Source: Geobacter sulfurreducens PCA
GTDB lineage: Bacteria; Desulfobacterota; Desulfuromonadia; Geobacterales; Geobacteraceae
Length of the DNA stretch: 32,000 nt
Direction of reading: 5' to 3'
NCBI RefSeq assembly: GCF_000007985.2
Contig: NC_002939.5
Coordinates: 3,510,001 to 3,542,000 of the forward strand
A program made the position numbers and the translations under genes. Positions 10,099-32,000 of the stretch are shown here, piece by piece (the stretch's first letter is position 1; each line of letters begins with the position of its first letter). The notes beneath the pieces are model-generated. The model did no database searches. It saw nothing but the letters and a program-made list of their open reading frames with translations, and was not told where the DNA came from.

Positions 10099-10142
10099 GG
10101 AAAGGAGTGGGGAGTCGGTCCCCGTGGCGTGTTCGATCTGAC

Positions 10143-12466: not shown

Positions 12467-12468
12467 CA

Positions 12469-15674: not shown

Positions 15675-15809
15675 TATTCGAATATCTAATTTAATTAAAA
15701 CTTTCACGCAATGACGCATGCAGTGCTGTACGCTACTCCGGTCGGGAACAGGCACCTGCTGCATGCGGCACCCAGTGAAGGCCACTGTGATGGACGAAGG
15801 GGGCAGGTG

Positions 15810-18800
15810 ATGAAACTGAGGCGATGTATCGCGTCGCTGGCGACCGTGGGGATGCTCGCCATGCTGTTGGTCCAGGCGGAGCCCCGACAGGTCACGGGCA
15901 GCGGCTATAGCGCGGAGACCGGCAAGAGACAGCGGCCGGCCCCCAAAGAATCCGGGTCGGCAGACAAGGCAATACGAAAGCGATGGCTCGTCCAGTTCAA
16001 CGGTCCGGTCCGGCCTGAGCAGCGACGGCAGTTGGAGGCGCTCGGCTGCCGTATCGGCGATTACATGCCCACGAATGCGTTTGTTGCGCTCATGGACGAC
16101 AAGGCGGCCAAAAGAGTTGCCCTTCTCTCATTCGTCGAGGACATCACCCGATTTGCACCGGCCGACAAACTGGTGGGCACGGCGCGGAAGGACCTGACGG
16201 CGGCACCGACGTCCGAGATCCGGATCCGGAAGGTGCTCCGGGTGGACGACCCCGCCGACCGGGCAGCGGTCATTGCCGCCACCCTGCGGGGAAATGGCCG
16301 GATACTGAACGTGGGTGCACGCACCATTACCGTGGAGGTACCGGAGGAGCTGCTCGCCCCCCTTGCCCAGCAGGAGGAGACAGCCTGGATCGGCGAGGTC
16401 GGGGAGTTGCGGCTGCACAACAGCGATGCTGCCTGGGTGGTACAGACCAATGAGGTCGATAATCGTACGATCTGGGAGAAGGGAATTACCGGCGCGGGGC
16501 AGATCGTCGGTATCGCCGACTCGGGGGTCGACTACGACATGCCCTGGTTCGCCGATCCGAACGGCGCTCTTCCCGGGCCGGGACACCGCAAGATCGTGGG
16601 GTACGACGCCACTCTGGGAGACAACCACGATGTGGCCGACGGCCACGGCACCCACATCGCCGGGACCATCTGCGGCGACCGGGGGCCCGGCATGCCCGGC
16701 AACGGCATTGCACCCGGCGCGCGCATCCACGTCCAGGACCTGGTCGGCACCGACGGCACGCTGACCGGCAGCCTGGAACTGGAAACCGTGCTGAAAAAAG
16801 CCTATGACAGCGGAGCCCGGATTTTCAACGGTAGTTGGGGGGTCGATAGCGGGAACTACGACGCCCTCGCCGCGGCCCTTGACGACTTTTCCTGGCGGCA
16901 CAAAGATTTCCTGGCCGTGTTCGCCAACGGCAACGGCGGCCCGGCGGAGCAGACGGCAACCAGTCCGGCCATAGCCAAGAACGCCACCAGCGTAGTGGCA
17001 ACCGGCAACGGAACCGATGCCGCCACGGTCAGCGCCGAAAGCAGTGTCGGCCAGGCTCCGGATGGCCGTGCCAATCCGTCGGTGGGCGCTCCGGGCCAGG
17101 GTGTGGTCTCGGCTCGCTCCGACGGCCTTCTCGGCAGCGGCAACAGCGGCACCATGGCCATGTCGGGCACCTCGGTGGCAGCGGCGGTCACCTCGGGAGC
17201 AGCCGCGCTCATCCGCCAGTACTTTACCGACGGCTTCTTCCCCACCGGCAGCCCTGTCGCCACCAACAAGCTGCAGCCCTCGGCAGCACTGCTGAAGGCA
17301 GTCCTCGTGAACAGCGCCGAAGCGCTCCTCTCGGACGACCCCGGCGACTCGTGCCCCTCGAAGAGGGGCGGCTGGGGGCGCCCCAAACTGATCAACACCC
17401 TCTTTTTCAACGGTGACAGCCACTCCCTGGAAGTAGTCGACGGGGGTACAGGGCTGGAAACCGACGGCGTCTGGCAGCGGCTCTACTTCTCCCCCGGCGG
17501 CAGAAGGCTCAAGATCACACTGGCCTGGACCGACGCCCCGGCGGCACCCGGTGCCACGTCCCCTCTCACCAATGACCTGAATCTGGTGGTTGTCGCACCG
17601 GACGGAACGACCTACCTGGGCAATGATCTGAACTGTTCCCACGGCGACTATGAATCACGGACCGGCGGTTTCTCCGACAGGGTCAACGTTGAAGAGCAGG
17701 TGGTCATCAAGCGGCCCGTGGCCGGCACCTACCTGGTCAAGGTGATCGGCGCCAGCATTCCGGTGGGTCCCCAGCCCTTCGCTCTGGTAATGACCGGGGT
17801 CACCGGGGTCACCTCGGACGGCCGGATCGCCCTGACCAACAGCACTAACGGCACCCTGGAGGCGCCGGGACAGGTGTCGGTCATGGTGACCGACCGGGAT
17901 ATCAACCGCGATGCCTCAGCGATCGAGACCATGACGGTGGACCTGCTCGGCGAGACCGAGAGCAACCCGGAGCAGGTGGTCCTCACCGAAACCGGCCCCA
18001 ATACCGGGACCTTCACCGGCACCTGCCGGATCGCACTCGGCGGCACCGCCATCCATGACAACGGTGCGCTGGAAGCGCGCCATGGCGAGACGATCAGCGC
18101 CCGCTATACCGATGAAATCAACCTGAGCGGCTATCCCCGCCTCGTGAGCGTGTCGGCCCGGATTGTCGACAGCGTGCCGCCGACGATCTCGGCGGTTGGC
18201 GTCGGAGCCCAGCTCTCCGAAACCTCGGCGACCGTAGCCTGGACCACCGACGAACCCGCAGACTCGAAGGTCAGCTACGGCTCTGACGGCTCCCTGGGTC
18301 TCAGTGTCATCGACGGAGCCTTTGTCTCGAACCATCTCCTGGCACTCTCAGGTCTGTCGGAAGGACAGGACTATTTCTTTTCCGTCACCTCATCCGACGC
18401 CGCCGGCAACGTCTCCACGGATACCAATGGCGGCAACAACTATACCTTCCGCACCGCCAGCCTCCCGCCGTCCCTGGAGGTCTTTTGCTCGGCGGAAAAC
18501 AACGAGACCTATCTCCCGACGGTCAGGGTCTTCGGCACCGCCACCGATCCGGCCGGAATCGACCGGGTGACGGTCAACGGCCAACCAGCCGTCTGGCGCG
18601 CCACCGATGGCTACTACGAGGCCACCGCCTCCCTGGTGCCCGGCAGCAACACCATTACCGTAATCGCGACGGATACGCTCAACAACCCGGCCGGGCAAAC
18701 CCTGACGGTCAACAGGACCCTGCCCCCCTTTGATCTGCTCGTGACGTCGGTCGTCTCTACCACGAACCTCCTGCCAAGCTCGGCCATCAGGGTGGACGGG

Positions 18801-21800
18801 ACGGTGCGGAACGAAGGCACCGCGGATGCCCCGTCGGCGGAGGTTGCCTTTTACCTCTCCCGCGGCGGGGCTGCCGCCGGCATCCCCCTCGGCAGTATCC
18901 CGATCTCACCCATCCCGGCGGGCCAAAGCGGCGCAGTTTCCTTCACCGCCAGCTTGCCTCCGGAAGTCGTACCAGGAGTTTACTTCATCGTCGCAACCGT
19001 CGACCCCGCCGACCAGGTGGCCGAAGCCCGGGAGGACAACAACTCCCTGACCGGCAATCCGGTTACGGTGGGCCGCCCCGATCTGGTACCGCTGACGGTG
19101 AGCAACACAACCCTCATGTCGCCGGGAGGCACCATTTCGACGAGCCTGTCGGTGCGCAACGACGGAGCCGCCAGCGCACCCGTTTCAACAGTCGCTGCCT
19201 GGCTTTCGGTCGACACGAACCTCTCCGGCGACGATATCCTGATCGGTACCGCCCCCGCCGCCGCTCTGTCTCCCGGCGCGTCAACCACGGTCGGCATCAG
19301 CGGCGTCCTCCCGCCAGGCATCCAGTCGGGCACCCTGAACATTATCGCGGTCGTCGACGCCTTGGGTGAGGTGGCAGAGGCGGACGAAAACAATAATCGG
19401 GCAACCGGGCAGCCTCTTACCATCGGCACGGCAGAACTATCCGTGACTACGGTAACGATGCCGGCCAGCATTGTCCGGGGCTCGACCGCCTCCGCCACCG
19501 CAACCGTCGCCAATACGGGTCACTATGCAGCAACCGGCGTGCGCGTCGGCGTCTATCTCTCGTCCGACACCGCCATCACCACCTCCGACATGTTTTTGGG
19601 GAGCGGCGTCATTGCATCCCTGGAACCCGGGGCATCGGCGCCGGTGAGCATACCAGTTCCCATAACGGACATCGTTGCCGCGGGGACATGGTATGTGGGC
19701 GCCGTGGTCGACGATCTCGGGATGATCGCAGAATCCGACGAGGGCAATAACGCCCTGGCCGGCAATCAGGTCGAGATCCTGGCGGACGGCCTTGACCTGA
19801 CCGTTCAGGGTGTGACCGCGCCAGCCTCCGGCACCACCGGTCAACCGGTCACCATTACGGCAACGGTTGCCGCCACCATGCCGGCGGCGGCATCCGCGGT
19901 CCAATTCTTCGTCTCGCGTGATCCGGTCATAACCAGCGCCGATACGTATCTGGCCACCAAGGCGGTCGGCTCCTTCGGCGCCGCAGGCGCACAGACCGTC
20001 ACTGCCACCGTGACGCTTCCCACGACGCTGACCAGCGACACCTGGTATCTCGGTGCCATTGCCGACGCCTATGGAGTGATTACCGAAATCAATGAAACCA
20101 ACAACGCCTCTGCCGGCCGTGCCATTACGGTTAACGGTCCCGAGCTTGTCGTGGAATCCCTTACTTCCGCCTCCGACACGGCTTACACGGCGGGCACCGT
20201 CAGCCTGGCCAGCACCATCAGGAGCATGGCCGGCGCCGCACCCACCCACCGGGTAGAGTTCTATCTCTCCACCGACCCGGCAATCACCACCTCCGACATT
20301 TACCTCGGCTACCGCACCGCGTCCCTCCCCGCGGGGGGAAGCAGCACGGCGACCACAATCCTGACGATCCCCCGCTACCTGACCGGGGGAGACTATTACA
20401 TCGGTGCCATCGCAGACCCCGGCAACGTCATTGCAGAGGCGAACGAGAACGACAACTCCCTGGGCATCCCCCTGCACATCATCGGCCCCGATCTCCAGGT
20501 AGACGGCCTGAGCCTCCCCGGCAGCGCCCTGTCAGGGGTCCCCCTCACCATTTCCAGCCGGGCATTTTCGACCCAGGGCGGATCCGGAAGTTTTACGGTC
20601 GACTTCTACCTTTCCTCAGACCAGACCATTACTACCGGCGACGTGTACCTTGGCCGCCGCACGGTGAGCAGCCTGGCTGTGGCCGGAGCGAGCACCGCAA
20701 CGGCCACGGTGACGATTCCGAATTACGTCTTCACGGGCCGCTATTACGTGGGCGCCATCGTGGACCCCTACAATTACGTGAAAGAGGAAACGGAGACCAA
20801 CAACTCGACCGGGACAGACCAGGCAGTCGCCGTGGAGGTAACGGGTGCCGAACTGGCACTAGCGTCTCTCTCGGCACCGGCCTCGGCCAAGCCCGGCGAA
20901 ACCATCGCCGTGGTCAACGCCCTTGCCACTACGGCAGGCTCGGCGCCCTCATCGTACATGGAGTTCTACCTGTCGACCGACAGCATCATCACCGCGGCCG
21001 ACCGCTATCTCGGAGGCCGCACCGTCTCAGCCCTGCCCGCGGGGGGGGCCAACAACGCCGCAACCGGCCTGAAGGTTCCAGCGGACATCCTGCCCGGGAC
21101 CTACTACCTCGGCGCCGTGAGCGACCCCTACAACACGGTCAGGGAGGCCAACGAGGCTGACAACACCCGAACCGTGCAGCTCACCGTCACCGGAAGGGAT
21201 CTGACGGTCGAGGCACTGAGCGGGCCGGCCGCCGCCCTCGCGGGGGCGACCATCGGAGTCGCCAATGCCGTGAAGAGCGCCGGCGGCGCAGTGCCGGGCT
21301 TCGATGTCACCTTCTACCTGTCGCGCGATGCCGTCATAACCCGCTCAGATGCCTACCTGGGGACCCGCTTCGTATCCGGCCTGGACATCGATGGCGCGAA
21401 CACGGTGACTACCACCCTCAAGCTCCCCAATGATCTGGAGGGCGGACGCTACTACCTGGGTGCCATCGTCGACGGTGGCAACCTGATCCCCGAGACCGAC
21501 GAGAGCAACAACGCATCGGCTGCGGCCCCCATCGACCTGGTTGGCGCCGACCTCGCGGTCTCGGCGCTGACCGCGCCGGCTACGGCCAGTGCCGGCGAAA
21601 CGATCTCCGCCCAGGTGATCGTCACAACCCGTGCCGGCGGCTCTCCTTACTCGCTCGTTAACTATTACCTGTCAACCGACGAGACTGTCTCGCCAGACGA
21701 CATCTATCTGGGAGTATCCACCATACCTTCACTGGGCCCGGGCGGCGGCGCCACTGTCGGCAAGTCGGTGAAACTGCCCGCGGACATGGAGCCGGCAACC

Positions 21801-21902
21801 TACTACCTGATTGCCGTTGCAGACCCTGCCAATGCAGTGGCAGAGGCGGATGAAACCAACAATACCTCTCAACCGCGCGCCATTGCGGTGACTGTACCCT
21901 AA
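15810..21902 (+). CDS. Giant secreted subtilisin-like (S8) serine protease with beta-sandwich/Fn3-like domains and nine C-terminal CARDB-like repeats
   Basis: Start at ATG 15810 (MKLRRCIASLATVGMLAMLLVQA signal peptide, AAGGGGG Shine-Dalgarno). I9-like propeptide. S8 catalytic triad contexts GIADSGVD, GHGTHIAGT and SGTSVAAAV. P-domain-like segment, an Fn3-like segment (TVAWTTDEPADSKVSYG) and an Ig-like segment, then nine ~117-aa repeats. 2030 aa in total. Confidence 0.9.
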   Translation: MKLRRCIASLATVGMLAMLLVQAEPRQVTGSGYSAETGKRQRPAPKESGSADKAIRKRWLVQFNGPVRPEQRRQLEALGCRIGDYMPTNAFVALMDDKAAKRVALLSFVEDITRFAPADKLVGTARKDLTAAPTSEIRIRKVLRVDDPADRAAVIAATLRGNGRILNVGARTITVEVPEELLAPLAQQEETAWIGEVGELRLHNSDAAWVVQTNEVDNRTIWEKGITGAGQIVGIADSGVDYDMPWFADPNGALPGPGHRKIVGYDATLGDNHDVADGHGTHIAGTICGDRGPGMPGNGIAPGARIHVQDLVGTDGTLTGSLELETVLKKAYDSGARIFNGSWGVDSGNYDALAAALDDFSWRHKDFLAVFANGNGGPAEQTATSPAIAKNATSVVATGNGTDAATVSAESSVGQAPDGRANPSVGAPGQGVVSARSDGLLGSGNSGTMAMSGTSVAAAVTSGAAALIRQYFTDGFFPTGSPVATNKLQPSAALLKAVLVNSAEALLSDDPGDSCPSKRGGWGRPKLINTLFFNGDSHSLEVVDGGTGLETDGVWQRLYFSPGGRRLKITLAWTDAPAAPGATSPLTNDLNLVVVAPDGTTYLGNDLNCSHGDYESRTGGFSDRVNVEEQVVIKRPVAGTYLVKVIGASIPVGPQPFALVMTGVTGVTSDGRIALTNSTNGTLEAPGQVSVMVTDRDINRDASAIETMTVDLLGETESNPEQVVLTETGPNTGTFTGTCRIALGGTAIHDNGALEARHGETISARYTDEINLSGYPRLVSVSARIVDSVPPTISAVGVGAQLSETSATVAWTTDEPADSKVSYGSDGSLGLSVIDGAFVSNHLLALSGLSEGQDYFFSVTSSDAAGNVSTDTNGGNNYTFRTASLPPSLEVFCSAENNETYLPTVRVFGTATDPAGIDRVTVNGQPAVWRATDGYYEATASLVPGSNTITVIATDTLNNPAGQTLTVNRTLPPFDLLVTSVVSTTNLLPSSAIRVDGTVRNEGTADAPSAEVAFYLSRGGAAAGIPLGSIPISPIPAGQSGAVSFTASLPPEVVPGVYFIVATVDPADQVAEAREDNNSLTGNPVTVGRPDLVPLTVSNTTLMSPGGTISTSLSVRNDGAASAPVSTVAAWLSVDTNLSGDDILIGTAPAAALSPGASTTVGISGVLPPGIQSGTLNIIAVVDALGEVAEADENNNRATGQPLTIGTAELSVTTVTMPASIVRGSTASATATVANTGHYAATGVRVGVYLSSDTAITTSDMFLGSGVIASLEPGASAPVSIPVPITDIVAAGTWYVGAVVDDLGMIAESDEGNNALAGNQVEILADGLDLTVQGVTAPASGTTGQPVTITATVAATMPAAASAVQFFVSRDPVITSADTYLATKAVGSFGAAGAQTVTATVTLPTTLTSDTWYLGAIADAYGVITEINETNNASAGRAITVNGPELVVESLTSASDTAYTAGTVSLASTIRSMAGAAPTHRVEFYLSTDPAITTSDIYLGYRTASLPAGGSSTATTILTIPRYLTGGDYYIGAIADPGNVIAEANENDNSLGIPLHIIGPDLQVDGLSLPGSALSGVPLTISSRAFSTQGGSGSFTVDFYLSSDQTITTGDVYLGRRTVSSLAVAGASTATATVTIPNYVFTGRYYVGAIVDPYNYVKEETETNNSTGTDQAVAVEVTGAELALASLSAPASAKPGETIAVVNALATTAGSAPSSYMEFYLSTDSIITAADRYLGGRTVSALPAGGANNAATGLKVPADILPGTYYLGAVSDPYNTVREANEADNTRTVQLTVTGRDLTVEALSGPAAALAGATIGVANAVKSAGGAVPGFDVTFYLSRDAVITRSDAYLGTRFVSGLDIDGANTVTTTLKLPNDLEGGRYYLGAIVDGGNLIPETDESNNASAAAPIDLVGADLAVSALTAPATASAGETISAQVIVTTRAGGSPYSLVNYYLSTDETVSPDDIYLGVSTIPSLGPGGGATVGKSVKLPADMEPATYYLIAVADPANAVAEADETNNTSQPRAIAVTVP
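18720..21899 (+). repeat. Nine tandem, diverged CARDB-like domain repeats (period 348-360 nt) inside the protease gene
   Basis: Repeat starts (xDL/xEL) fall at about 18729, 19080, 19434, 19794, 20142, 20490, 20850, 21198 and 21549. The shared pattern is V.N.G...A....V.FYLS.D..IT..D.YLG...V..L..G.......V.IP......G.YY.GA..D..N.V.E..E.NN. Confidence 0.8.
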
Positions 21903-22142: not shown

Positions 22143-22158
22143 TGGCACCGGCGTTGCT
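22143..22158 (+). promoter_or_regulatory. Consensus sigma54 promoter TGGCAC-CGGCG-TTGCT
   Basis: TGGCAC at 22143-22148 and TTGC at 22154-22157 are an exact match to TGGCAC-N5-TTGC. The element is immediately preceded by an ~80-nt very AT-rich tract (22060-22140) and lies about 150 nt upstream of the tetraheme cytochrome start. Confidence 0.8.
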
Positions 22159-22296: not shown

Positions 22297-23091
22297 ATGA
22301 ACATCATGAAAAACAGAATTCTTACCGTAGTCTGCGCCGCCGCCCTTTCCGCAGGCGCCTTGGCCGGCGTGGCCCTCGCCAAGCAGACCTACACCCCGGG
22401 AACCGGCGTGTCCAACTCGCCGCACAACATCAACAACGTGGTAACCAACGGTGACGAGTACGGCCGGGTCTGTGCCTACTGCCACACCCCGCACCATGCC
22501 ATCGTCAGCGGCGCCATTGCCGAGTACAACCCGCTCTGGTCCCACCAGGTGAACGAAGAAACCTATACTCCCTATGCATCCCGGACCTTTGACGGCGGTT
22601 CTGTCGACAACATGCAGTCCGACCCGCTCGTCGGTCCCAGCCGTCTCTGCATGAGCTGCCATGACGGCGTCATCGCCGTAAGCCAGCACTATGGAACCGC
22701 TCCGGCTGCGGGCAACGGCTCCGCCGCCGTGGGTGACAACTGGAACGAGATCAGCGTCGGCGACCTCGCTTTCGGTGAAGGCCTCACCAACGATCACCCG
22801 ATCGGGTTCGATTACGATGCGGTTGCCTCGACCGACAAAGGGAACGGCACCCTCGGCTCCGGCATCAAGGCTGCCAACACCCAGTTCTCCGTGACCCTGG
22901 CCGGTACGGGCGTTAACTATGCCGGTACCCATGACCGGAAGATCTCCGATCTTATGTACAACAACGGCAGCAAGAACATCATGACCTGCGCCAGCTGCCA
23001 CGACGTACACAACAACGAGAACCCTGAGGACTACCTCCTCATTAACAAGCAGGCCGGCTCCCAGATCTGCCTCACCTGCCACAAAAAGTAA
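22297..23091 (+). CDS. Secreted tetraheme c-type cytochrome
   Basis: Four CXXCH motifs (CAYCH, CMSCH, CASCH, CLTCH). Signal peptide M(NIM)KNRILTVVCAAALSAGALAGVALA. Start is ATG 22297 or ATG 22306, the latter with better spacing to AAAGGA. The listed ORF start at 22192 is upstream of any signal peptide. Confidence 0.85.
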   Translation: MNIMKNRILTVVCAAALSAGALAGVALAKQTYTPGTGVSNSPHNINNVVTNGDEYGRVCAYCHTPHHAIVSGAIAEYNPLWSHQVNEETYTPYASRTFDGGSVDNMQSDPLVGPSRLCMSCHDGVIAVSQHYGTAPAAGNGSAAVGDNWNEISVGDLAFGEGLTNDHPIGFDYDAVASTDKGNGTLGSGIKAANTQFSVTLAGTGVNYAGTHDRKISDLMYNNGSKNIMTCASCHDVHNNENPEDYLLINKQAGSQICLTCHKK

Positions 23092-23103
23092 CCGGCACTA
23101 TTC

Positions 23104-23119: not shown

Positions 23120-23123
23120 ACAG

Positions 23124-23157
23124 AAAAGGCCGCTGCCTTGTCGGGCAGCGGCCTTTT
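23124..23157 (+). terminator. Rho-independent terminator directly after the tetraheme cytochrome gene
   Basis: Stem AAAAGGCCGCTGCC (23124-23137) / GGCAGCGGCCTTTT (23144-23157) with a 6-nt loop. The 10-bp GC core is followed by TTTT. Confidence 0.8.
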
Positions 23158-23239
23158 CACCAACACAATCATATAAAAACCGTAATAATACGAATTTACA
23201 ACTGGTTATCATCCTCCACCCTATTCCGAGGAGGTTTTC

Positions 23240-24478
23240 ATGAAGCCGCGTTTCGCCGTAGCCCACCGTCCTTTCACACAAGCTGCCCGGCTGTTCCTGC
23301 TCTGTTCGCTGCTCTGGATCAGCGGATGTGCCGGTAAAACCGGCACTGCGGGAAAGACCTTTTTTCCGCCGCCTCCCAACCTGCCCCGGCTCCAGTACCT
23401 GATGGGGATTGCCAACTCGACCGATGTGGAAGGGAAGGATTCATCGTTTTCCCTCTTCGGGGGATTGGCCGAGCAACGCGAAAAGATCCGCTACATCGTG
23501 AAGCCGTACGGCATTACCGAGGCCGGCGGCAAGCTCTACGTGAGCGATGTGGGAACCGCCCAGATCGTCGTCATCGACCTGCCGGGCAAAAAATTCGAGC
23601 TGCTCAAGGGGGCTGCCGGACCTGGCAAGCTGACCACTCCGGCCAACGTGGCCGTGGACAAGGACGGCTTCATCTACGTGGCCGACGCGGGCCGGAGAGA
23701 GGTGGTGGTATTCACGCCGGAAGGCGATTTCCTCAAGGCCATCGGCGGGGACCGGGACATGAAGCCCGTGGATGTGGTCGTTAGCGGCGACCGGGCCTTC
23801 GTGCTCGACATCAAAAGCAGCGATATCAAAGTGTTCAACGTCAAGAGCGGCCAGTATCTCGAAAGTTTCGGCACAGCGGGCGGCCCCTTCGAGCGGCTCG
23901 CCATGCCCATCAACCTGGCCATGGACTCCAAGGGGTTTCTCTATGCCACCAACGGGGTCAGCGGCAGAGTCCTCAAATTCGACCGGGACGGCAACCTGCT
24001 GCTCTCCTTCGGCCAGATGGGTGATGGCTTCGGCCAGTTCGCCCGCCCCAAGGGAATCGCGGTGGATCCCACCGGACTGATCCACGTGGTTGACGGCGGA
24101 CATCAGAACGTTCAGCTCTTTTCGGATACGGGACGCCTGCTCCTCTTCTACGGCGACGCGGGCAAGGATAGCACCGCATCACTGAATCTCCCGGCAGGGA
24201 TCGCCTATTCCACGGCCAACCTGGAGTACTTCCAGAAAATGGCGGACTCTTCCTTCAAGCTGGACGGCGTGGTGTTCGTCACCAACCAGGGGGGGAAAGC
24301 GAACAAGGTGGCCGTGTACGGGTACGGCAAACGCGAAGGGATCGATTACGAGCAGGAGTACGAGAAAATCCGCAAGGAACTGGAAGAGCGTGCACGGAAA
24401 GCCCGCGAAAAGGAGGCCCAGGAGGGGAAGAAGGCTGGCCAGGCCGAACCCAAGGCTGCGGAACCCGCCGCGAAGTAG
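23240..24478 (+). CDS. NHL-repeat six-bladed beta-propeller lipoprotein with a charged Lys/Glu-rich C-terminal tail
   Basis: Lipobox LLWISGC. Repeated P.G(I/V)A(V/M)D..G.(I/L)YV.D......(V/I).(V/F) blades. GAGGAGG Shine-Dalgarno at 23228-23234. The tail reads EKIRKELEERARKAREKEAQEGKK. Confidence 0.85.
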   Translation: MKPRFAVAHRPFTQAARLFLLCSLLWISGCAGKTGTAGKTFFPPPPNLPRLQYLMGIANSTDVEGKDSSFSLFGGLAEQREKIRYIVKPYGITEAGGKLYVSDVGTAQIVVIDLPGKKFELLKGAAGPGKLTTPANVAVDKDGFIYVADAGRREVVVFTPEGDFLKAIGGDRDMKPVDVVVSGDRAFVLDIKSSDIKVFNVKSGQYLESFGTAGGPFERLAMPINLAMDSKGFLYATNGVSGRVLKFDRDGNLLLSFGQMGDGFGQFARPKGIAVDPTGLIHVVDGGHQNVQLFSDTGRLLLFYGDAGKDSTASLNLPAGIAYSTANLEYFQKMADSSFKLDGVVFVTNQGGKANKVAVYGYGKREGIDYEQEYEKIRKELEERARKAREKEAQEGKKAGQAEPKAAEPAAK

Positions 24479-24499
24479 CCTGATGAGGCGCGCATCGGC

Positions 24500-25087
24500 A
24501 TGAGAAGGTCTGTTGCTGTGATATGGCTGTTGCGGGTGGGGCTGGGTGCCCTTGCACTCTGCCTGACCGCCTGCGACCCCGTGGTGCGCCACAAGACCCT
24601 GTCCACCATCTTCGACGGGGTGCCGACGCTGCCGCCCACTGACGAGTACTGCGTCGACTTCGCCCGGCAGTATCACCAGGAACAGTTGGGACTGGCCAAA
24701 GTGGAGGTCAAGGAGGAAGGACCCAAGGGGTCCACCCACCTGCCCTACGGCGAGAAACGCTGCGCTGACTGTCACGGCTCCGACAAGGACAAGAGCGGCG
24801 GGTTGGTGGTGCCCAAGCAGGAACTCTGCTTCAAGTGCCATCCCGGTTTCCTCAAGGGCGCATTCCAGCATGGGCCTGCAGCCGTGGGTGATTGCCTCGC
24901 CTGCCATCTCCCCCACGCCGCGCCGAACCCGGACCTGCTCGGAGCGCCGCGGGACCAGATATGCGGCCGCTGCCACACGGAAGAACGGCTTACCAACCGG
25001 ATGCACGACCGCCTGAAGGACAGCAAGATCGCCTGCGTCGAGTGCCATGACCCCCATGCCAGCGACGCCCGCTATCTGCTGCGCTAG
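24500..25087 (+). CDS. Pentaheme c-type cytochrome lipoprotein
   Basis: Lipobox LCLTAC. Five CXXCH motifs (CADCH, CFKCH, CLACH, CGRCH, CVECH) in 195 aa. Confidence 0.85.
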   Translation: MRRSVAVIWLLRVGLGALALCLTACDPVVRHKTLSTIFDGVPTLPPTDEYCVDFARQYHQEQLGLAKVEVKEEGPKGSTHLPYGEKRCADCHGSDKDKSGGLVVPKQELCFKCHPGFLKGAFQHGPAAVGDCLACHLPHAAPNPDLLGAPRDQICGRCHTEERLTNRMHDRLKDSKIACVECHDPHASDARYLLR

Positions 25088-25096
25088 GCACCGGCC

Positions 25097-27130
25097 ATGG
25101 AACTATGGGGAAATGCAGCGAGGGGCCCGATAGGCGGTGGCATACGCATTGCCGCCGCGCTCATGGTGCTGCTCGTGCTGTCCTTCCCCTGCCCGGCCGA
25201 CGCGGCACGGCTGACGCTGTTGCGCTTCGGCAAGCTGACCCAGAACATCAGCCTGGGGTATGAATTCGATCAGCAGTCGAGCCAAAGCGACGGGGGAACC
25301 AGCCTTGACTCCACGTCCCACCGCTTCGACGAGCGTTATCGGGCCGCGTTCCGCTATGCTGTCCTCTCTCCGCGATTGTTGAACGGTTCCGTCAGGGTCG
25401 GCGCCAACCTCGAACAGGAAAACGAAGAAACCACCAACCGTTCCGCCTCCGACGGTTCGAGCCATCAATTGGAGTACAACGTAAACGGCACCTGGTTCCA
25501 GCGCAGTTGGTATCCGGTCACCTTCTTTACCTATCAGCAGTACAACAGGGTGCGCCAGGCATTCACTCCCTCCTACGACATCAAGACCGACGGCGTCGGC
25601 GCGACCCTGAGCCTCCAGAACAACTACGTACCCACCCTGTTCAACTACAGTCTCCGCTCGAACGCTACGTCGGGGGCAGGAGCCGACACGGAGAACACCA
25701 TCGAAGCCTTTCTTCTGTCGTTCTCCCACAACTACCGGAGCCTGTCCAACGCAACGCTGTCGCTGTCCCTCAACAAGAGTGACACCGTCACCAAGGGAGA
25801 GGCAACGACAACCTCTTCGGACACGCGCAGCGTCGTGTTCAAGCATCTGCTCAATCTGGGGACCACCGATCTCACCCGCACCCTCAACACCCTCGCCAGC
25901 TACGTCGACGAGACCGGCACGGTCCGGAATCACACCCTGGAGTTGAACGAAAGTCTCGACTGGTGGGTGGGCAAGGCGCTCCAAACCCACGCAATCTACA
26001 TTCACCGCGACCGCACCTTTGCCGACAGAAAAACGGTGGAGGACAGCGGGGTCGGCTGGATTCAGCATCGCCTCTATAAGAGCCTCACTACCCGCCTCGA
26101 CCTGCGGGGCAAGAACACCACCTTCGACAACAACGGCTCCATCACCGAGATCGGTGGCGGAGGAACCATCGACTATGAAAAAAAGCTGCCCGAAGAGAGC
26201 AGCCTGCTGGTGGGGGTGGGCTACAATTACGGGATCACCGACAACAAACTGGGCGCCGATGCCCTGCCGGTAATCAATGAACAGACCACGGTGCCGGACC
26301 TTCCCCCCTACGAACTTGTGATGGGACAATTGGACGTTAACCCCGACAGCATCGTCGTCCGCAACCGGGAACGGACGTTCATCTACACCCCCGGCACCGA
26401 TTACCAGGTTGTGACCGATGGCCGCGAGACCCGGATCGTCTTTCCGCAGATCCCCACGGTCGGCCCGTTTCCGATCACCGCGGGAAGCATCCTCTCCATC
26501 GATTACGAATACCGGATTGCCCCCTCCATCACCTATAGCCAGAGCGTCTATACCGGCTACGCTACCCTGTCGCTCTTTCAGGAGCGGCACCGCTTGTTCG
26601 TGCGAATCACCGACAGCAGCCAGGACGTCCTGGAAAACCGCGGGGCCGGGTCCCCTCAGCTCAGCGACTACCGGACTCTCAACCTGGGGTTTGAAAGCCG
26701 TCGGGAGTTCCTGAGTTACGGTGCTTCGTACCTCCGCATCGATTCGGACATCAACCCGAGCCAGACCTTCGAGGGCTACTCGCGCTACGTGCGCTCCTTC
26801 GGCCGGGACCTGGTGCGACTGAACCTTCGGGAGCGCTATACCCTTCATGACAACGGGGATGACCGCACGGAGTCCAGCTACACCAATACCCTCAACCTGA
26901 CGGGGGAATACCTCCGTCCGGTCACCAACTGGGCGACCATGCGCCTGATCGGGGACTACCTGATGGTGCGGGGACGTTCTCCCAGCGATGAAGTGAGTGC
27001 TTCGGTCGAGCTCAATGCCCAGTTCGGACGAACCGAACTGTCCCTCTTCTCGGAGCTGGCCTGGAAGTTTTTGCCCCAGAACACGAACCGCAGCACTGCC
27101 ATCAGGCTGCAGATCAGCAGGTCGTTCTAA
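25097..27130 (+). CDS. Large outer-membrane beta-barrel protein (porin-like), 677 aa
   Basis: N-terminal hydrophobic signal ending PADA-ARL. Long runs of alternating polar/aromatic residues rich in Y/T/N/S/R. C-terminal ...RLQISRSF with a terminal Phe, as in the OMP beta-signal. It starts 9 nt after the preceding cytochrome gene. The start codon is uncertain because no clear Shine-Dalgarno is present. Confidence 0.7.
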   Translation: MELWGNAARGPIGGGIRIAAALMVLLVLSFPCPADAARLTLLRFGKLTQNISLGYEFDQQSSQSDGGTSLDSTSHRFDERYRAAFRYAVLSPRLLNGSVRVGANLEQENEETTNRSASDGSSHQLEYNVNGTWFQRSWYPVTFFTYQQYNRVRQAFTPSYDIKTDGVGATLSLQNNYVPTLFNYSLRSNATSGAGADTENTIEAFLLSFSHNYRSLSNATLSLSLNKSDTVTKGEATTTSSDTRSVVFKHLLNLGTTDLTRTLNTLASYVDETGTVRNHTLELNESLDWWVGKALQTHAIYIHRDRTFADRKTVEDSGVGWIQHRLYKSLTTRLDLRGKNTTFDNNGSITEIGGGGTIDYEKKLPEESSLLVGVGYNYGITDNKLGADALPVINEQTTVPDLPPYELVMGQLDVNPDSIVVRNRERTFIYTPGTDYQVVTDGRETRIVFPQIPTVGPFPITAGSILSIDYEYRIAPSITYSQSVYTGYATLSLFQERHRLFVRITDSSQDVLENRGAGSPQLSDYRTLNLGFESRREFLSYGASYLRIDSDINPSQTFEGYSRYVRSFGRDLVRLNLRERYTLHDNGDDRTESSYTNTLNLTGEYLRPVTNWATMRLIGDYLMVRGRSPSDEVSASVELNAQFGRTELSLFSELAWKFLPQNTNRSTAIRLQISRSF

Positions 27131-27154
27131 CCGAGCGGACGAAAAGGAGCACAC

Positions 27155-28252
27155 ATGGAGCAATCAGTCCCGGCACGCGGCACATCCCCTGCACGCCGGC
27201 TTGCGACCGCGGCCAGGCACTGCCTGGTCCTGGCCGTGGCGAGCATCCTGGCCGCCTGCACGACCATTACGGCCGTAACACCGAACGAACCGGAGCAACG
27301 GCTGGTCTGGCCGGGACCGCCGCTCCAGCCGCGCATCGAGTGGGTGCGCGAAGTCTATAACCAGAAGGGGCTCGGGGTATCTCCCGGGTTCTGGGGCAGG
27401 ATCGCGCGGTTCGTACTGGGCGAGAAGGAGGAGCGATTCATTCGTCCCCACGGAATTCTGGCCGATGAACAGATCTTCGCCTTGGTCGATTCGGGCGCCG
27501 GGCGAGTGCACCTGATTGATCTGAAGCGAGGGACCTATCGGCTGCTGCCGGAGGAAGGCAAGACCCCGATGGTCTCACCCATCGGGATAGCCCGGGACAG
27601 CCGGGGAGCGATCTATGTAACCGACTCCGGCACCGGCCTGATCCACCGCTTTTCCGACGACGGCGACTCTTTCGTCGCGCTGGACCTCCGCCCGCTTCAC
27701 CGCCCCACCGGCATCGCCTTCAACCCGGTAACGGGCCTGCTGTACGTGGCGGAAACCGGCGCCCACCGGATCGTAGCCTTCGATTCGGCGGGCAAGGAAA
27801 CCCTGCGCATTGGCGGGAGCGGCATGGAGCCCGGCGCCTTCAACTTCCCCACCGACCTGGCCGTGATGGCCGATGGACGCCTTCTGGTAACCGACTCCCT
27901 CAACAGCCGGATTCAAATCTTCACGGCAGACGGGAAGCCGGCGGGAAGCTTCGGCGAGGCCGGGGATACTCCCGGTCGCTTCACCCGCCCCAAGGGGGTC
28001 GCAGTGGACAGCGAAGGGCATATCTACGTCTGCGACAGCCAGCAGGACATGGTTCAGATCTTCGACGAGACGGGCCGGCTGCTCCTGGCCTTCGGCGACA
28101 AGGGAAGCCTCCCCGGCCAGTTCTGGATGCCTTCCGGCATCCATATCGCCAATGACATGATCTATGTCTCCGATACGTATAACCAGCGGGTACAGGTCTT
28201 CCGCTACCTGAAGGAAGAGCCCTGGGGGCAGGACCCCCACACCCCCGACTAA
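27155..28252 (+). CDS. NHL-repeat six-bladed beta-propeller lipoprotein
   Basis: Lipobox SILAAC. Six recognisable blades (PHGILAD, PIGIARDSRGAIYVTD, PTGIAFNPVTGLLYVAE, PTDLAVMADGRLLVTD, PKGVAVDSEGHIYVCD, PSGIHIANDMIYVSD). AAGGAG Shine-Dalgarno at 27144-27149. Confidence 0.85.
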   Translation: MEQSVPARGTSPARRLATAARHCLVLAVASILAACTTITAVTPNEPEQRLVWPGPPLQPRIEWVREVYNQKGLGVSPGFWGRIARFVLGEKEERFIRPHGILADEQIFALVDSGAGRVHLIDLKRGTYRLLPEEGKTPMVSPIGIARDSRGAIYVTDSGTGLIHRFSDDGDSFVALDLRPLHRPTGIAFNPVTGLLYVAETGAHRIVAFDSAGKETLRIGGSGMEPGAFNFPTDLAVMADGRLLVTDSLNSRIQIFTADGKPAGSFGEAGDTPGRFTRPKGVAVDSEGHIYVCDSQQDMVQIFDETGRLLLAFGDKGSLPGQFWMPSGIHIANDMIYVSDTYNQRVQVFRYLKEEPWGQDPHTPD

Positions 28253-28263
28253 AGGTGGACACC

Positions 28264-29994
28264 ATGGCAGCACGACCCATGATAACGGCACTGGTCTTCT
28301 TCCTGGGAACGGCGGCCCCGGCGGCGGCCCTCTCTCCCTCCCTGAGCGTGACCGATTCTCACAACCGCCACAACCTGTCCGTAAGCGGCCCGGGGCTCAC
28401 CGGTGCGACCCGCGCCTCCACCGAAGAGCGGGTCTGCATTTTCTGCCATACGCCCCACCACGCCACGAGCATAACCCCCCTCTGGAGCCGCGAGTTGTCC
28501 AGCGCGCTCTACACCCCCTACGACTCGTCGACCCTCAAGGCAATCCAGAAACCGGGCCAGCCTACCGGCGCATCCCGTCTTTGCCTGGGGTGTCATGACG
28601 GCACCATCGCCCCCGGCATGCTCTCGGGGGGCAAGATGATCGCGGGGCTGCCGACCCTGCCCACGAATGTGCGCTCGAACCTGTCCACTGATCTCTCCGA
28701 CGACCATCCCATTTCCTTTCCCTATGCCGGATCCATCTCGGTCGCCGCCGTGCTCCGGCTGCCGGCCGAACTGCCGCCCGAAATCTCGCTCGAAGACGGC
28801 AGAATCGAATGCACCAGCTGCCACGATCCCCACAAGGACCGCTACCCTCCGGCTGATCATCCGCAGAAATCGGGGAAATTCCTGGTGCTCGACAACAACA
28901 ATTACTCGGCCCTCTGCACCGCCTGCCACAGCCGCGCCGGGCTCACGGAGGGCGCCCACTACCTGCCGGGCGATCCCTGCGAAAGCTGTCACCAGGTCCA
29001 CCGGGCCGATCAGCCGGCACGGCTGCTGAAGGGAGCCAATGTGCAGGAGACCTGCGTCCTCACCTGCCACAACGGAACCGGCACGGTGGAAACATCCGGG
29101 ACCGACATCCGCTCCGCATCGGTCTTCGGCAAAGCTCATCAGACCGGCCGGCTCGTTCTTTCCGGCAGGCACGACGCCGACGAGAACCCCCTCGACTTCG
29201 AGCCGTCACAGCCGCACGTGGAGTGCGTCGATTGCCACAATCCCTGCATCACCCGTCATGAATCAACACCTCTTGCTTCGCCGCCGACGCTGAACGGCCG
29301 GCTCGTAGGGGTTACCATCGCCAAGTCGCCCGACGGCATCAAGACTTACGCCGACAGCGAATATGCCATCTGCTACAAATGCCACGGCGACCGGAGTTTC
29401 GTGCCCCCGGCCGTGCCCCGCAGGGTCCAGACCGGTGACCAGAGCCTCCGCTTTGCCCAGGAAAACCCCTCGTATCACCCGGTATCGGCGCCGGGCAAAG
29501 GGATGAGCGTGCCAAGCCTGCGCTTTGAAATCGTCGGGTTCAGGCCCGCTCGGACCCTCTCCATCTCAAGCCTCATCTACTGCACCGATTGCCATTCGAG
29601 CAACAAGGGCAGCAAGGTGGGGGGGAGCGGCGCATCCGGACCCCACGGCTCCGATTACCAGCCAATCCTGATGGACCGCTACGAGCACGACACCTATCCC
29701 CTCGCCTATGCCGAGAGCAACTACTCCCTCTGCTTCCGTTGCCATGACCAGACGATTCTGCTGGACCCGGGCCGATCGGCGTTTCCGCTCCACCAGTCCC
29801 ACCTGGTCAACCATCAGGTACCCTGCTCAGTCTGCCACGACCCCCATGGCGTTCCCCTGGTTCTGGGGGGCACCACGGCTGCAAACAGCCACCTGATCAA
29901 CTTCGATACCCGCTTCGTCACCACCGGCAGCTATGACTCTCCGGGTCGCAGCTGCACCGTGAGTTGCCACTCGGCCAACCCGAGAACCTACTGA
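28264..29994 (+). CDS. Secreted multiheme c-type cytochrome (10 CXXCH plus 2 CX3CH-like motifs)
   Basis: Signal peptide MAARPMITALVFFLGTAAPAAA. Ten CXXCH motifs plus CVLTCH and CTVSCH. The first ~200 aa parallel the tetraheme protein at 22297. ATG 28264 is preceded by AAAGGTGG; GTG 28255 is an alternative start. Confidence 0.85.
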   Translation: MAARPMITALVFFLGTAAPAAALSPSLSVTDSHNRHNLSVSGPGLTGATRASTEERVCIFCHTPHHATSITPLWSRELSSALYTPYDSSTLKAIQKPGQPTGASRLCLGCHDGTIAPGMLSGGKMIAGLPTLPTNVRSNLSTDLSDDHPISFPYAGSISVAAVLRLPAELPPEISLEDGRIECTSCHDPHKDRYPPADHPQKSGKFLVLDNNNYSALCTACHSRAGLTEGAHYLPGDPCESCHQVHRADQPARLLKGANVQETCVLTCHNGTGTVETSGTDIRSASVFGKAHQTGRLVLSGRHDADENPLDFEPSQPHVECVDCHNPCITRHESTPLASPPTLNGRLVGVTIAKSPDGIKTYADSEYAICYKCHGDRSFVPPAVPRRVQTGDQSLRFAQENPSYHPVSAPGKGMSVPSLRFEIVGFRPARTLSISSLIYCTDCHSSNKGSKVGGSGASGPHGSDYQPILMDRYEHDTYPLAYAESNYSLCFRCHDQTILLDPGRSAFPLHQSHLVNHQVPCSVCHDPHGVPLVLGGTTAANSHLINFDTRFVTTGSYDSPGRSCTVSCHSANPRTY

Positions 29995-29999
29995 GATAC

Positions 30000-30028
30000 C
30001 CCCCAGAATCGCCCGGCGGTTCTGGGGG
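30000..30028 (+). terminator. Strong GC hairpin (terminator-like, weak U tract) after the 10-heme cytochrome gene
   Basis: CCCCCAGAATCGCC (30000-30013) pairs with GGCGGTTCTGGGGG (30015-30028) with one G-U wobble, followed by ATTT. Confidence 0.5.
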
Positions 30029-30188
30029 ATTTCCCCCGTACCCCCCAGAAACATAGGGTGAATATACCCCACTCCCCCCCGTTTTCCTGTCCATTGGCTC
30101 TTCACCATTAGTCCACAAGATTTACGAATATTTTATATATCAAGACGTTTCGCGGTTTTATCACTTTTTTGCTCATATTTATTCGCCG

Positions 30189-30420: not shown

Positions 30421-32000
30421 ATGAAGAGAAACCGGAGACACCCGGCCGCCGGCCCGGTGCTGATCTCGGGAGCCGCACTGATAGTGGGGCTTGCCAGCGG
30501 ATCGGCAACGGCTGCCTATAACGCGGCCCACAAGGACATCGTCCTGAAGAATGCGGCGGGATCTGCCATCAAGGCAACCGACACCGTCAACGCCTTCAGC
30601 ATCAAGAACACCTGCTTCGGCACCGCCGGCTGCCATGGCGACACCAATGCCGGCGGCACCCTCAGATTCAGCTATGACGACATCGAGCGCCACTCCTACC
30701 ATGCCCAGCTCGGTGCCAATGAAATTCGCGGCTGGAACCCCTGGAACCCCGACTCTGCCGACGCCTTCCGCAAAGGAGCCGGACCGGTGGGTAAAAACTG
30801 GGTCCAGAGCCCCGGCCACGTGGGCTCATGGTGACCGCCTTCCGCTCGCCAGTTGGCGAGACTGTACAATGACGGCGCAGGAACCGCCTACGACTCGGCA
30901 AATGCCAAGTTTATCGACAACCTCTTCGGCTGGACCAACTACCTCGCGGGCACGAAAAACCTGAACGGCGCCTTCGAGCCGTTCAACTTCGGCTCGGCTG
31001 CCGGATTCAAGAGCAAGGTTGACAACTCCCTTGCGGGCGAAATGCGCGACTGCGGTGAGTGCCACGTCGGCGGCGGTCTGATGGAGTACATGAGCAATAC
31101 CATTCCGACCAGCGACTACACCGGCGGCGTCAGCTACGACCCCGCCAAGCGCACCTCCTATCGCGATGTGGTCTTCGGCGGCCTCTTCACCGCCTTCAAC
31201 GCCCTCATCGACGTCTTCAACCCCGATCCTGCCCGGCGCGGCGACGTGGTCATCAACGACTACGCCCAGACCGGCGTCATGGAGATGGATTGCCTCATTT
31301 GCCACTTTGAAGGTTATGACTGGGAGAAGCGGAAGGAAGCCGTCCGCAAAGGTGAATTCGATGCCTCCCGCGCCCTCGGCTCCGGCCTGGCCACCTCGGC
31401 GGCTAGCGGCGTCCAGGTAACCTACGACACTAACCTGGTCAAGACAAATGCCAGCGGCGATCTGGTTGTGGACCTCTCCGCCAAGCTGAGCCCGGTCCCG
31501 CCGGCCGACAACTGCGCCTCTTGCCACCTGTCCCAGTACAACGTCGACTGGAAGAAGCGCGGCGACATGTGGATCGAAGGCACTGAAGCCCACTACGGCA
31601 TCGGCTGCATGGGCTGCCACCAGCGCAAAGACGCGGCGAGTCCCACGGTCGGCACGAGCGGCCTGGTGAGCAGCACCACGCTCGGTCTCTGCGACCCGGC
31701 CAAGGGTGGCGCGTCCCCCTTCGACGCCATGTGGAACAAGCTCGACAAGTCTCAGTTCAAAGAGTGCGTGGACTGCCACGCTCCCACGAGCACGCCGACC
31801 TACGACACCTACAATGCGCCCAACCCGGTTTCAGCTCACGCAATCAAAGGGCTGACCGACAAGATCGCCTTTGATAAGGACGGCAACTCGGTAAGCCACA
31901 TCGAACTGATCGACTGCTCCGCCTGCCATATCAGGAAGTCGGGCTTCACCGGCGGCGCCTTCGTCGACGGCACCGGCGCCGATGAAGAAGGCCGCCTGGC
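30421..32000 (+). CDS. Large secreted multiheme c-type cytochrome interrupted by one in-frame TGA (30832-30834); 3' end outside the window
   Basis: ATG 30421 with GAGGAGAAAGG Shine-Dalgarno and signal peptide MKRNRRHPAAGPVLISGAALIVGLASGSATA. The same frame (frame 1) has no other stop from 30421 to 32000 apart from the TGA at codon 138. Downstream of the TGA are six CXXCH motifs (CGECH, CLICH, CASCH, CMGCH, CVDCH, CSACH) and no start codon or Shine-Dalgarno for a separate gene. Confidence 0.7.
30845..30860 (+). other. SECIS-like hairpin 10 nt downstream of the in-frame TGA
   Basis: CUCGCC (30845-30850), loop AGUU, GGCGAG (30855-30860): a perfect 6-bp GC-rich stem. The loop starts 16 nt after the UGA and has G at its second position. 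Confidence 0.35.

Follow-up and report, generated by a model that had tools for sequence, protein, structure and literature searches.

What does a tightly spaced run of five genes encoding two NHL beta-propeller lipoproteins, a pentaheme lipoprotein cytochrome, a 677-amino-acid (aa) outer-membrane beta-barrel, and a large secreted multiheme cytochrome do for Geobacter sulfurreducens PCA? The genes occupy positions 23240 to 29994 on the plus strand of a 32,000-nucleotide (nt) stretch of contig NC_002939.5 (positions 3,510,001 to 3,542,000), here called the window, whose own numbering is used below. We infer that they are GSU3222 to GSU3226, because the translations of the first, second, and fourth genes are identical to AAR36613.1, AAR36614.1, and AAR36616.1, respectively, and because the order of cytochrome and noncytochrome genes fits the pattern of locus tags (cytochromes GSU3218, GSU3221, GSU3223, GSU3226, and GSU3228) tabulated for this region (PMC4070692). 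The protein cluster containing the barrel also includes the PCA sequence AAR36615.2 (UniProt Q747P1_GEOSL). On balance, and with somewhat better than even confidence, we propose that the five genes form the core of a conserved OmcE-type module, controlled by sigma-54, for electron export across the outer membrane, in which the barrel would be the exit or anchor and the sheath of a heme wire. The module would be a second, divergent G. sulfurreducens copy of the genes associated with the OmcE nanowire.

Conservation of the gene cluster across independent loci

Searches with relatives of the barrel and of GSU3221, the gene directly upstream of the block, led to the same ordered set of genes in nine further independent loci, giving at least 10 with the window. 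The order is a 13-heme cytochrome, an OmcE-like tetraheme cytochrome, a first NHL propeller (NHL1), a pentaheme lipoprotein, a barrel of 660 to 690 aa, a second NHL propeller (NHL2), and a 10- to 12-heme cytochrome, headed by a sigma-54-dependent response regulator wherever the contig extends that far. Complete loci were found on a metagenome contig (L001), in Geomonas nitrogeniifigens (L038), on a Joint Genome Institute (JGI) contig (L039), in a Desulfuromonas metagenome-assembled genome (MAG; L040), in two further MAGs (L042 and L044), and, reached from distant barrel representatives, on three distinct metagenome contigs (L045, L047/L048, and L049); partial copies lie on two contigs (L004 and L046). 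Six to eight genes hold the same order in these loci at barrel identities down to 23 to 27%, and the arrangement is therefore not a product of chance. The barrel evolves fastest, with 27 to 34% identity versus 42 to 56% for its partners. Orthologs of the response regulator stand at the same position in L001, L039, L040, L042, and L044, and orthologs of GSU3218, the 13-heme cytochrome, precede the OmcE-like gene in L001, L038 to L040, L042, L044, L045, and L049, so that GSU3218 is the conserved first member of the module.

These comparisons show that the initial annotation, which took the five genes as the whole unit, had cut it too short: the OmcE-like gene, its sigma-54 promoter, the hairpin that follows it, GSU3218 with the regulator, and a giant cytochrome gene downstream also belong. 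Within the block itself, the five reading frames were recovered at the same coordinates and in the same order, with the same gaps of 21, 9, and 24 nt and a last gap of either 2 nt (GTG at 28255) or 11 nt (ATG at 28264), the ATG being the more probable start because of its better Shine-Dalgarno sequence. The heme counts (five CXXCH motifs for the 195-aa protein; for the 579-aa protein, 10 CXXCH motifs and two of the CX3CH type) and the three lipoboxes (ISGC in NHL1, LTAC in the pentaheme protein, and LAAC in NHL2) also agreed. Signal peptides of the ordinary kind precede the barrel and the large cytochrome. No terminator-like site was found on the plus strand within the block. Short gaps are compatible with the translational coupling first suggested but are not proof of it, and the fixed stoichiometry suggested along with it is a reading of the spacing.

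Shared components with the omcE nanowire cluster

The minimal omcE nanowire cluster comprises an OmcE subunit, two beta-propeller lipoproteins, two multiheme cytochromes, and a large beta-barrel that is regarded as a putative secretion pore or anchor (bioRxiv 10.1101/2025.10.22.684050). GSU3221 together with the five-gene block has exactly this composition. The architecture had at first been presented as a departure from known conduits; since the published minimal cluster has the same components, it is not unprecedented.

For comparison, 33 loci were fetched with the 7TFS sequence, of which 31 (the canonical omcE loci L005 to L035) belong to Geobacter and its relatives among the Desulfuromonadia. 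In these, a 9-heme cytochrome comes first, followed by an 8-heme cytochrome, an NHL lipoprotein, OmcE, an optional second NHL protein, and a barrel of 705 to 780 aa. Four of the five component types of the omcE cluster (the GSU0618 region, and D. soudanensis WTL) are homologous to those described here: the propellers to NHL1 and NHL2 (E values of 1e-41 to 1e-59), the 9-heme cytochrome to GSU3218 (E ~1e-70), the 8-heme cytochrome to GSU3223 (E ~1e-17), which has five hemes, and OmcE to the OmcE-like family of the module (E ~1e-18). The differences are equally clear. Here the subunit gene comes first and the barrel gene lies mid-cluster, and the barrel, at 660 to 690 aa, has no detectable homology to its longer counterpart. 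A 12-heme protein with a fused OmcE-like domain is present, whereas the canonical omcE loci are without such a protein; unlike the omcE cluster, the module has its own sigma-54 regulator and promoter and a selenocysteine-type giant cytochrome downstream. The omcE cluster sits between purHDE/resB-ccsB and tRNA modification/ffh genes, and the chromosomal context here is different. Because the barrels show no detectable homology and the contexts differ, the cluster is a separate and divergent system rather than a duplicate of the omcE locus.

Regulation and expression

A TGGCAY-N7-TGC element of the sigma-54 type lies 148 to 229 nt upstream of the OmcE-like gene in all nine loci inspected (the window, L001, L038 to L040, L042, L044, L045, and L049), and no such element was found upstream of the first NHL gene in the same nine. 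The response regulator encoded upstream is the probable activator of the cluster. On the other side of the OmcE-like gene, an 89-nt stretch (23092 to 23180) that contains a GC-rich hairpin folds at -38 kcal/mol (z -6.2), and all five of the loci tested (the window, L001, L038, L039, and L040) have a strong hairpin and a U tract directly behind this gene. A 66-nt stretch after the large cytochrome gene (29995 to 30060), which holds a second hairpin, folds at -29.3 kcal/mol (z -3.1).

A promoter 5' and a hairpin 3' of the OmcE-like gene suggest high production of the tetraheme protein and attenuated expression of the five genes. The simplest reading would be a single promoter, with excess expression of the OmcE-like gene and read-through of the hairpin into the five genes behind it. 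In microarray data, hematite and magnetite induce GSU3218, GSU3221, GSU3223, GSU3226, and GSU3228 together, the strongest induction of the set being that of GSU3228, at 8.1-fold with hematite (PMC4070692).

The unannotated barrel family

The 677-aa barrel has no Pfam or NCBIfam match, hence no MtrB/PioB or OmbB family signal, and a sequence search gave no solved relative. A word-indexed protein search returned five relatives, the same with the single sequence or with a 141-sequence profile. An exhaustive HMMER search placed the barrel in a family of 1401 representative clusters (defined at 50% identity) at E <=1e-3, 207 of them at E <=1e-30; for most of the best 150 of the 1401, the relatives are ~620 to 700 aa long and match over nearly their full length. 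The barrel alignment found no encoded relative in a genome contig collection in which G. sulfurreducens never appears.

AlphaFold2, run with the 141-sequence alignment, modeled an all-beta barrel with a mean predicted local distance difference test (pLDDT) score of 93.7 and a predicted template modeling (pTM) score of 0.80; a run with five sequences reached a pLDDT of only 60. DSSP assigned the better model 28 to 30 long strands with loops of two to seven residues on both faces. A single inserted conserved domain at ~385 to 476 carries several residues that are nearly invariant in the family, and the model is without an N-terminal plug domain of the kind found in TonB-dependent receptors. As modeled, the barrel is wide enough to sheath a cytochrome, and it exceeds the barrels of known conduits (26 strands in MtrB and ~20 in Geobacter porins), as had been proposed initially. 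Foldseek against the PDB returned generic large barrels only (TonB-dependent receptors, LptD, FimD, PapC, and MtrB), all with template modeling (TM) scores below 0.42; MtrB (6R2Q_B) came first at a weak 0.41. The barrel is thus close to no solved barrel. Within its first 60 nt, the barrel gene contains a further perfect match to the sigma-54 consensus (TGGCATACGCATTGC at 25138 to 25152 on the plus strand); chance probably accounts for it, because the window contains 10 matches to a looser pattern against ~6 expected.

A similarly ordered gene set surrounds a different barrel-like protein in a Chitinophagales MAG of the Bacteroidota (L037, positions 1127 to 11812). It consists of a sigma-54 regulator, an 8-heme cytochrome, an NHL protein, an OmcE-like tetraheme cytochrome, a 558-aa barrel-like protein ending in RRPF, a second NHL protein, and a 630-aa cytochrome with 10 hemes and an OmcE-like N-terminal domain. 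The 558-aa protein matches neither the GSU3224 family nor the barrel family of the omcE cluster. The barrel may have been exchanged more than once.

Cytochromes and propellers of the module

GSU3221, which ends 148 nt upstream of the five-gene block and has four CXXCH motifs, matches the OmcE filament structure 7TFS_A (E 3.8e-17) and 9YUQ (E 1.5e-15). The latter entry, of 16 chains, is annotated merely as a putative multiheme cytochrome; we take it to be the OmcE bundle of D. soudanensis. The same two structures are matched by residues ~25 to 227 of the large cytochrome GSU3226 (E 1.5e-16 and 2.7e-16, respectively), and this N-terminal domain is homologous to GSU3221 itself (E 5e-20). In an alignment of OmcE, two of its orthologs, GSU3221, the GSU3226 N-terminal domain, and relatives, four CXXCH motifs and four further heme-ligand histidines are invariant, the same set that is reported to be conserved among OmcE homologs (bioRxiv 10.1101/2025.10.22.684050). 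A search with the GSU3221 family returned 1472 matches. By these similarities, GSU3221 is a candidate filament or surface subunit. Beyond its OmcE-like domain, GSU3226 carries eight more heme motifs, partly DmsE-like; its orthologs keep a 10+2 or 11+1 heme pattern, and no lipobox was found in GSU3226 or any of them.

The pentaheme lipoprotein GSU3223 matches MtrA of the Mtr complex (6R2Q_A; E 4.2e-11) and the DmsE family (E 1.7e-14, a match below the family cutoff), and all of its orthologs keep the five hemes. An aspartate directly follows the lipidated cysteine in four of the six tabulated orthologs and also in L042. The sequence C-D-P-V/T, starting with the lipidated cysteine, was seen in the window and in the orthologs of L001, L004, L039, and L042.

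Both propellers match the Pfam NHL family (E 1e-16 and, for the five repeats of NHL2, 6e-37) and are paralogs with 29% identity. The best solved relatives of NHL2 are the NHL domains of TRIM71, Thin, TRIM2/3, and Brat, which are binding modules and not enzymes. The propellers also match the SGL/gluconolactonase, arylesterase, and Vgb lyase families of Pfam, but these weak matches score near or under the threshold and are generic for six-bladed propellers. NHL1 has a conserved FFPPxPxxPR motif after its lipid anchor. Its C terminus (24340 to 24478) forms a charged tail of ~50 residues, many of them Lys, Glu, or Ala (ending KIRKELEERARKAREKEAQEGKKAGQAEPKAAEPAAK), which is missing from NHL2; the tail may be variable, as the lengths of the orthologs span 366 to 488 aa. 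NHL or other beta-propeller proteins are encoded beside outer-surface cytochromes elsewhere (Gmet_0556 in G. metallireducens, GSU2505 in G. sulfurreducens, DFE_0451/0463 in D. ferrophilus, and UetHI), and such proteins are required for, or associated with, outer-surface cytochromes. The initial statement that a role of this kind was not established for NHL proteins is thus too sweeping as regards their association with these cytochromes and still holds for the mechanism.

A putative selenoprotein downstream

Downstream of GSU3226 begins the reading frame of a giant cytochrome, which is interrupted by an in-frame TGA at 30832 to 30834 and contains a hairpin resembling a selenocysteine insertion sequence (SECIS) at 30845 to 30860. 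The orthologs are ~1190 aa long and have a C-terminal PKD domain; gene callers split the protein into parts of ~140 aa and ~1030 aa, the second of which lacks a signal peptide. All nine orthologs keep the TGA (in addition to the window, L001 15818, L038 17598, L039 18879, L040 20455, L042 20569, L045 14380, L047 8397, and L049 14363), the flanking peptide ...GK(N/S)WVQxxGHxGxW-U-PPSxRQL..., and the hairpin. The hairpin, CTCGCC-AGTT-GGCGAG, begins 11 nt past the TGA, and its stem shows compensatory changes in three loci (CTCGAC...GTCGAG in L038 and L040; GCGCC...GGCGC in L042). The alternative that the TGA merely separates two adjacent genes by coincidence was rejected on the missing downstream signal peptide and the conservation of TGA, peptide, and hairpin in all nine.

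GSU3227 and GSU3228 are therefore probably a single new multiheme selenoprotein of ~1190 aa. The same organism has a catalytic multiheme selenoprotein, the recently characterized polysulfide reductase MccSep (GSU2937-2936). The giant cytochrome showed no similarity to any solved structure, the MccSep family included, and on that basis we rejected its membership in that family. It follows the large cytochrome in the window, L001, L038 to L040, L042, L045, L047, and L049.

Features and genomic context of the window

The coordinates of the module and of the adjacent features are collected in Table 1. The genes farther upstream are lolA, a DUF520 gene, a radical-SAM methylthiotransferase-like gene, iPGM, an aldehyde dehydrogenase gene, an amino acid kinase gene, and obg. 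A possible role in the cluster for the sensor kinase-like protein is suggested by adjacency only. In G. sulfurreducens only, an S8 subtilase gene sits between the 13-heme cytochrome and the OmcE-like gene; it is missing at the equivalent position in every other locus examined. Maturation of the OmcZ nanowire requires a subtilisin-like protease, and for that reason the position of a protease beside an OmcE-like subunit may not be accidental.

Table 1. Features of the module and its surroundings in the window (locus tags are presumptive assignments)
Feature	Coordinates	Strand	Remarks
Sensor kinase-like protein	11264..12466	+	Pfam PilZ and HATPase_c; overlaps response regulator start
Sigma-54-dependent response regulator	12460..13974	+	Pfam receiver, Sigma54_activat, HTH_8
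480-aa multiheme cytochrome (GSU3218)	13984..15426	+	13 CXXCH, 1 CX3CH, 1 CX4CH; signal peptide
2063-aa S8 subtilase, nine CARDB repeats	15711..21902	+	Pfam
Sigma-54 -24/-12 element TGGCACCGGCGTTGC	22143..22157	+	154 nt 5' of OmcE-like gene; AT-rich stretch precedes
OmcE-family tetraheme cytochrome, 264 aa (GSU3221)	22297..23091	+	Signal peptide, no lipobox
GC-rich hairpin and short U tract, intrinsic-terminator-like	23123..23158	+	Between OmcE-like gene and five-gene block
NHL beta-propeller lipoprotein 1, 412 aa (GSU3222)	23240..24478	+	Lipobox ISGC
Pentaheme lipoprotein cytochrome, 195 aa (GSU3223)	24500..25087	+	MtrA/DmsE type; lipobox LTAC
Outer-membrane beta-barrel, 677 aa (GSU3224, Q747P1)	25097..27130	+	Signal peptide; C-terminal ...SRSF
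NHL beta-propeller lipoprotein 2, 365 aa (GSU3225)	27155..28252	+	Lipobox LAAC
Large secreted cytochrome, 579/576 aa (GSU3226)	28255/28264..29994	+	10 CXXCH + 2 CX3CH
Terminator-like hairpin, weak U tract	30000..30028	+	Directly 3' of large cytochrome gene
Giant cytochrome, start (GSU3227 + GSU3228)	30421..32000	+	Continues beyond window end

Comparison with other envelope systems

The MtrCAB complex of Shewanella (6R2Q) likewise combines a large barrel with short loops, an MtrA/DmsE-like cytochrome, and a larger outward cytochrome. However, its barrel has 26 strands versus ~28 to 30 here, with a TM score of only 0.41, and its inner cytochrome has 10 hemes, whereas the one described here has five and is itself the lipoprotein. 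The extracellular cytochrome of a classic Mtr or porin-cytochrome (Pcc) conduit is a lipoprotein; unlike that of MtrCAB, the outer cytochrome of the module has neither a lipobox nor an MtrC fold signal. The two propeller lipoproteins and the OmcE-like subunit are additional to the MtrCAB parts. The Pcc/Ext conduits of G. sulfurreducens itself (OmaB-OmbB-OmcB, ExtABCD, ExtEFG, and ExtHIJKL) follow the same logic of a barrel with a periplasmic and an outer cytochrome, and their genes, like the cluster described here, respond to extracellular acceptors. Their barrels are predicted to have ~18 to 22 strands and their outer cytochromes are lipoproteins. No report describes any of them with a pair of NHL propellers or with an OmcE-like subunit, and GSU3222 to GSU3226 are not named among the conduits in the literature searched.

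Other systems were compared by description. Shen et al. (2025) reportedly describe an OmcS-companion (osc) assembly cluster in G. sulfurreducens and are said to propose a porin-like mounting of the nanowire. By this account, the cluster, with the NHL protein GSU2505, also joins a filament cytochrome to a channel-like outer-membrane component and a beta-propeller, but OmcS is unrelated to OmcE in sequence. The Uet clusters of Tenderiales and Gallionella and the D. ferrophilus clusters DFE_0448-0451 and DFE_0461-0465 pair multiheme cytochromes with one or two NHL propellers, and Uet also includes a beta-barrel, UetC. However, the tri-, tetra-, and undecaheme cytochromes of Uet, with a peptidyl-prolyl isomerase (PPIase) and a cupredoxin, form a different set, and no OmcE-type subunit has been reported for the Uet or D. 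ferrophilus clusters. Chaperone-usher pili offer an analogy only: a major-subunit gene comes first, behind a strong promoter, followed by a hairpin and then by lower-expressed assembly genes that include a large barrel, and the ushers FimD and PapC are among the Foldseek neighbors of GSU3224. They differ in that there is no sequence relationship, the PapD-type chaperone has no counterpart, and the subunits here are heme proteins that have to fold in the periplasm.

Proposed mechanism and alternative explanations

From the folds, homologies, synteny, and regulatory elements described above, we infer a topology, a set of contacts, polymerization, and a path of electron flow for the module. The response regulator would activate the sigma-54 promoter, and the OmcE-like subunit would be made in excess, with read-through of the hairpin yielding smaller amounts of the machinery encoded by the five genes, much as in pilus operons in which the gene for the major subunit stands before that for the usher. 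Periplasmic carriers and GSU3218 would pass electrons to the pentaheme lipoprotein GSU3223, from which they would travel through the barrel to GSU3226. The 12-heme GSU3226 would pass through or sit in the barrel, which would provide an exit or anchor site as well as a sheath for the heme wire, and its OmcE-like domain, lying outside, would hand electrons to GSU3221, polymerized or bound to the surface. The two propeller lipoproteins may act as periplasmic docking or chaperone scaffolds at the inner face of the outer membrane.

It is also conceivable, though we hold it doubtful, that conduit and nanowire are one continuous machine in which GSU3226 is the base or tip adaptor between filament and barrel. 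Workers on OmcE report that they cannot find such an adaptor in omcE operons. In such a machine, the N-terminal domain of GSU3226, with all heme ligands kept, would copolymerize with GSU3221 as the first or last subunit, while its eight-heme tail would thread the 28- to 30-strand GSU3224 barrel to touch GSU3223. Loading of subunits from the periplasmic side would fall to the two NHL lipoproteins.

Several observations weigh against an OmcE-type export module. A hidden Markov model (HMM) of the GSU3224 family found no match in the 31 canonical omcE loci, and a profile-profile comparison (hhalign) of that family with the barrel family of the canonical omcE cluster gave a probability of 7.8% and an E value of 0.0044; by these two comparisons, we rejected the assignment of the barrel to the canonical family. 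OmcE-like tetraheme cytochromes are widespread, and in two of the nine neighborhoods examined (L041 and L043) such a relative stands alone without the module, so the tetraheme family is wider than the module. Under the sorting rule of Escherichia coli, which may not hold in Geobacter, an aspartate after the lipidated cysteine causes retention in the inner membrane; if the rule applies, the aspartate of GSU3223 means that this protein would be an inner-membrane-tethered electron donor instead of a barrel insert. Finally, what cytochrome filaments do physiologically is itself a matter of dispute, according to one article (PMC11077965).

The competing explanation with the most in its favor is a plain porin-cytochrome conduit without a filament, in which GSU3223 would lie inside the barrel like MtrA, GSU3226 would be a surface reductase like MtrC, the propellers would be scaffolds, and GSU3221 would be a tetraheme shuttle, either soluble or loosely bound. 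The resemblance of GSU3223 to MtrA and DmsE, the rank of MtrB as highest in TM score, the need of a short-loop barrel without a plug for a protein filling, and the induction of the genes by iron oxide minerals all agree with it. The conduit logic of the initial annotation stands insofar as it called for an outer-membrane electron transfer assembly with a pentaheme lipoprotein, but the lipobox is on the small and not on the large cytochrome, unlike in MtrC, OmcB, and ExtC-type partners. Apart from the weak structural match, nothing assigns the barrel to MtrB/PioB or to any other family, and a five-heme wire of ~35 to 40 Å (estimated from MtrA geometry) would barely span the membrane. A conduit of this kind would also leave unexplained why an OmcE-family subunit, under a strong promoter and followed by a terminator of its own, is invariably attached and why the large cytochrome bears an OmcE-like domain. 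We therefore consider a plain conduit possible but rather unlikely. Still less probable is that the module exports or wires GSU3227/GSU3228 as its cargo, which the barrel and propellers would move to or anchor at the surface and which would be a catalytic terminal reductase there (for example, of sulfur, polysulfide, or another chalcogen or mineral species), fed with electrons by the other cytochromes. The giant cytochrome gene follows the module in 9 of ~10 complete loci, always with the UGA, and is the most strongly induced of the set with hematite (8.1-fold; PMC4070692), and MccSep provides a precedent in the same organism, although the giant cytochrome resembles no solved structure, that family included. 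PKD domains such as the one at its C terminus are typical of surface proteins. However, L044 has a complete module without the giant cytochrome gene, and even a barrel of 30 strands would be unlikely to let a folded protein of ~130 kDa through.

It could also be asked whether the genes are unrelated neighbors that merely share an operon, with the barrel a nutrient or other porin and the propellers NHL-fold enzymes of a lactonase or amidating-lyase-like type, as the initial annotation had considered. The enzyme-family matches of the propellers described above would fit such a reading, but they are near or below threshold and generic, and the strongest matches are to nonenzymatic NHL binding domains. 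The constant order of six to eight genes in at least 10 loci, with barrel identity as low as 23 to 27%, excludes an unrelated nutrient porin. This synteny, together with the kind of domain that the propellers match best, led us to reject the combination of nutrient porin and NHL enzymes, and we regard a fortuitous neighborhood of any kind as highly improbable. The OmcE-type export module is the reading that we retain.

Implications

As kinds of systems, the omcE cluster and porin-cytochrome conduits are already known. In the literature searched, no paper describes GSU3222 to GSU3226 as a unit, and the tags appear only in expression and single-nucleotide polymorphism (SNP) tables; nor did we find a description of this variant, with its unannotated barrel family, its cytochrome fused to an OmcE domain, and its own sigma-54 control. 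The exit route of the filament, its anchor, and the point of electron entry are open questions in the field (bioRxiv 10.1101/2025.10.22.684050). The locus presents a compact, strictly conserved, and separately regulated OmcE-type version in a genetically tractable model organism, with parts recognizable by sequence: an MtrA-like input wire, a barrel whose predicted width would admit a folded cytochrome, and a fusion protein with an OmcE domain that possibly joins wire to filament. If GSU3226 is such an adaptor in a continuous machine, this would be the first time that the envelope anchor of a cytochrome filament, and the place where electrons enter it, had been defined, and the barrel would come from an unannotated family of ~1400 clusters. 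If the module is only a conduit, it would still extend the known size range and composition of conduits. For a large unannotated family of outer-membrane barrels (1401 representative clusters), the module provides a name and a context, and for G. sulfurreducens it adds at least one more candidate route for electrons across the outer membrane beyond the OmcBC and Ext clusters named in the literature searched.

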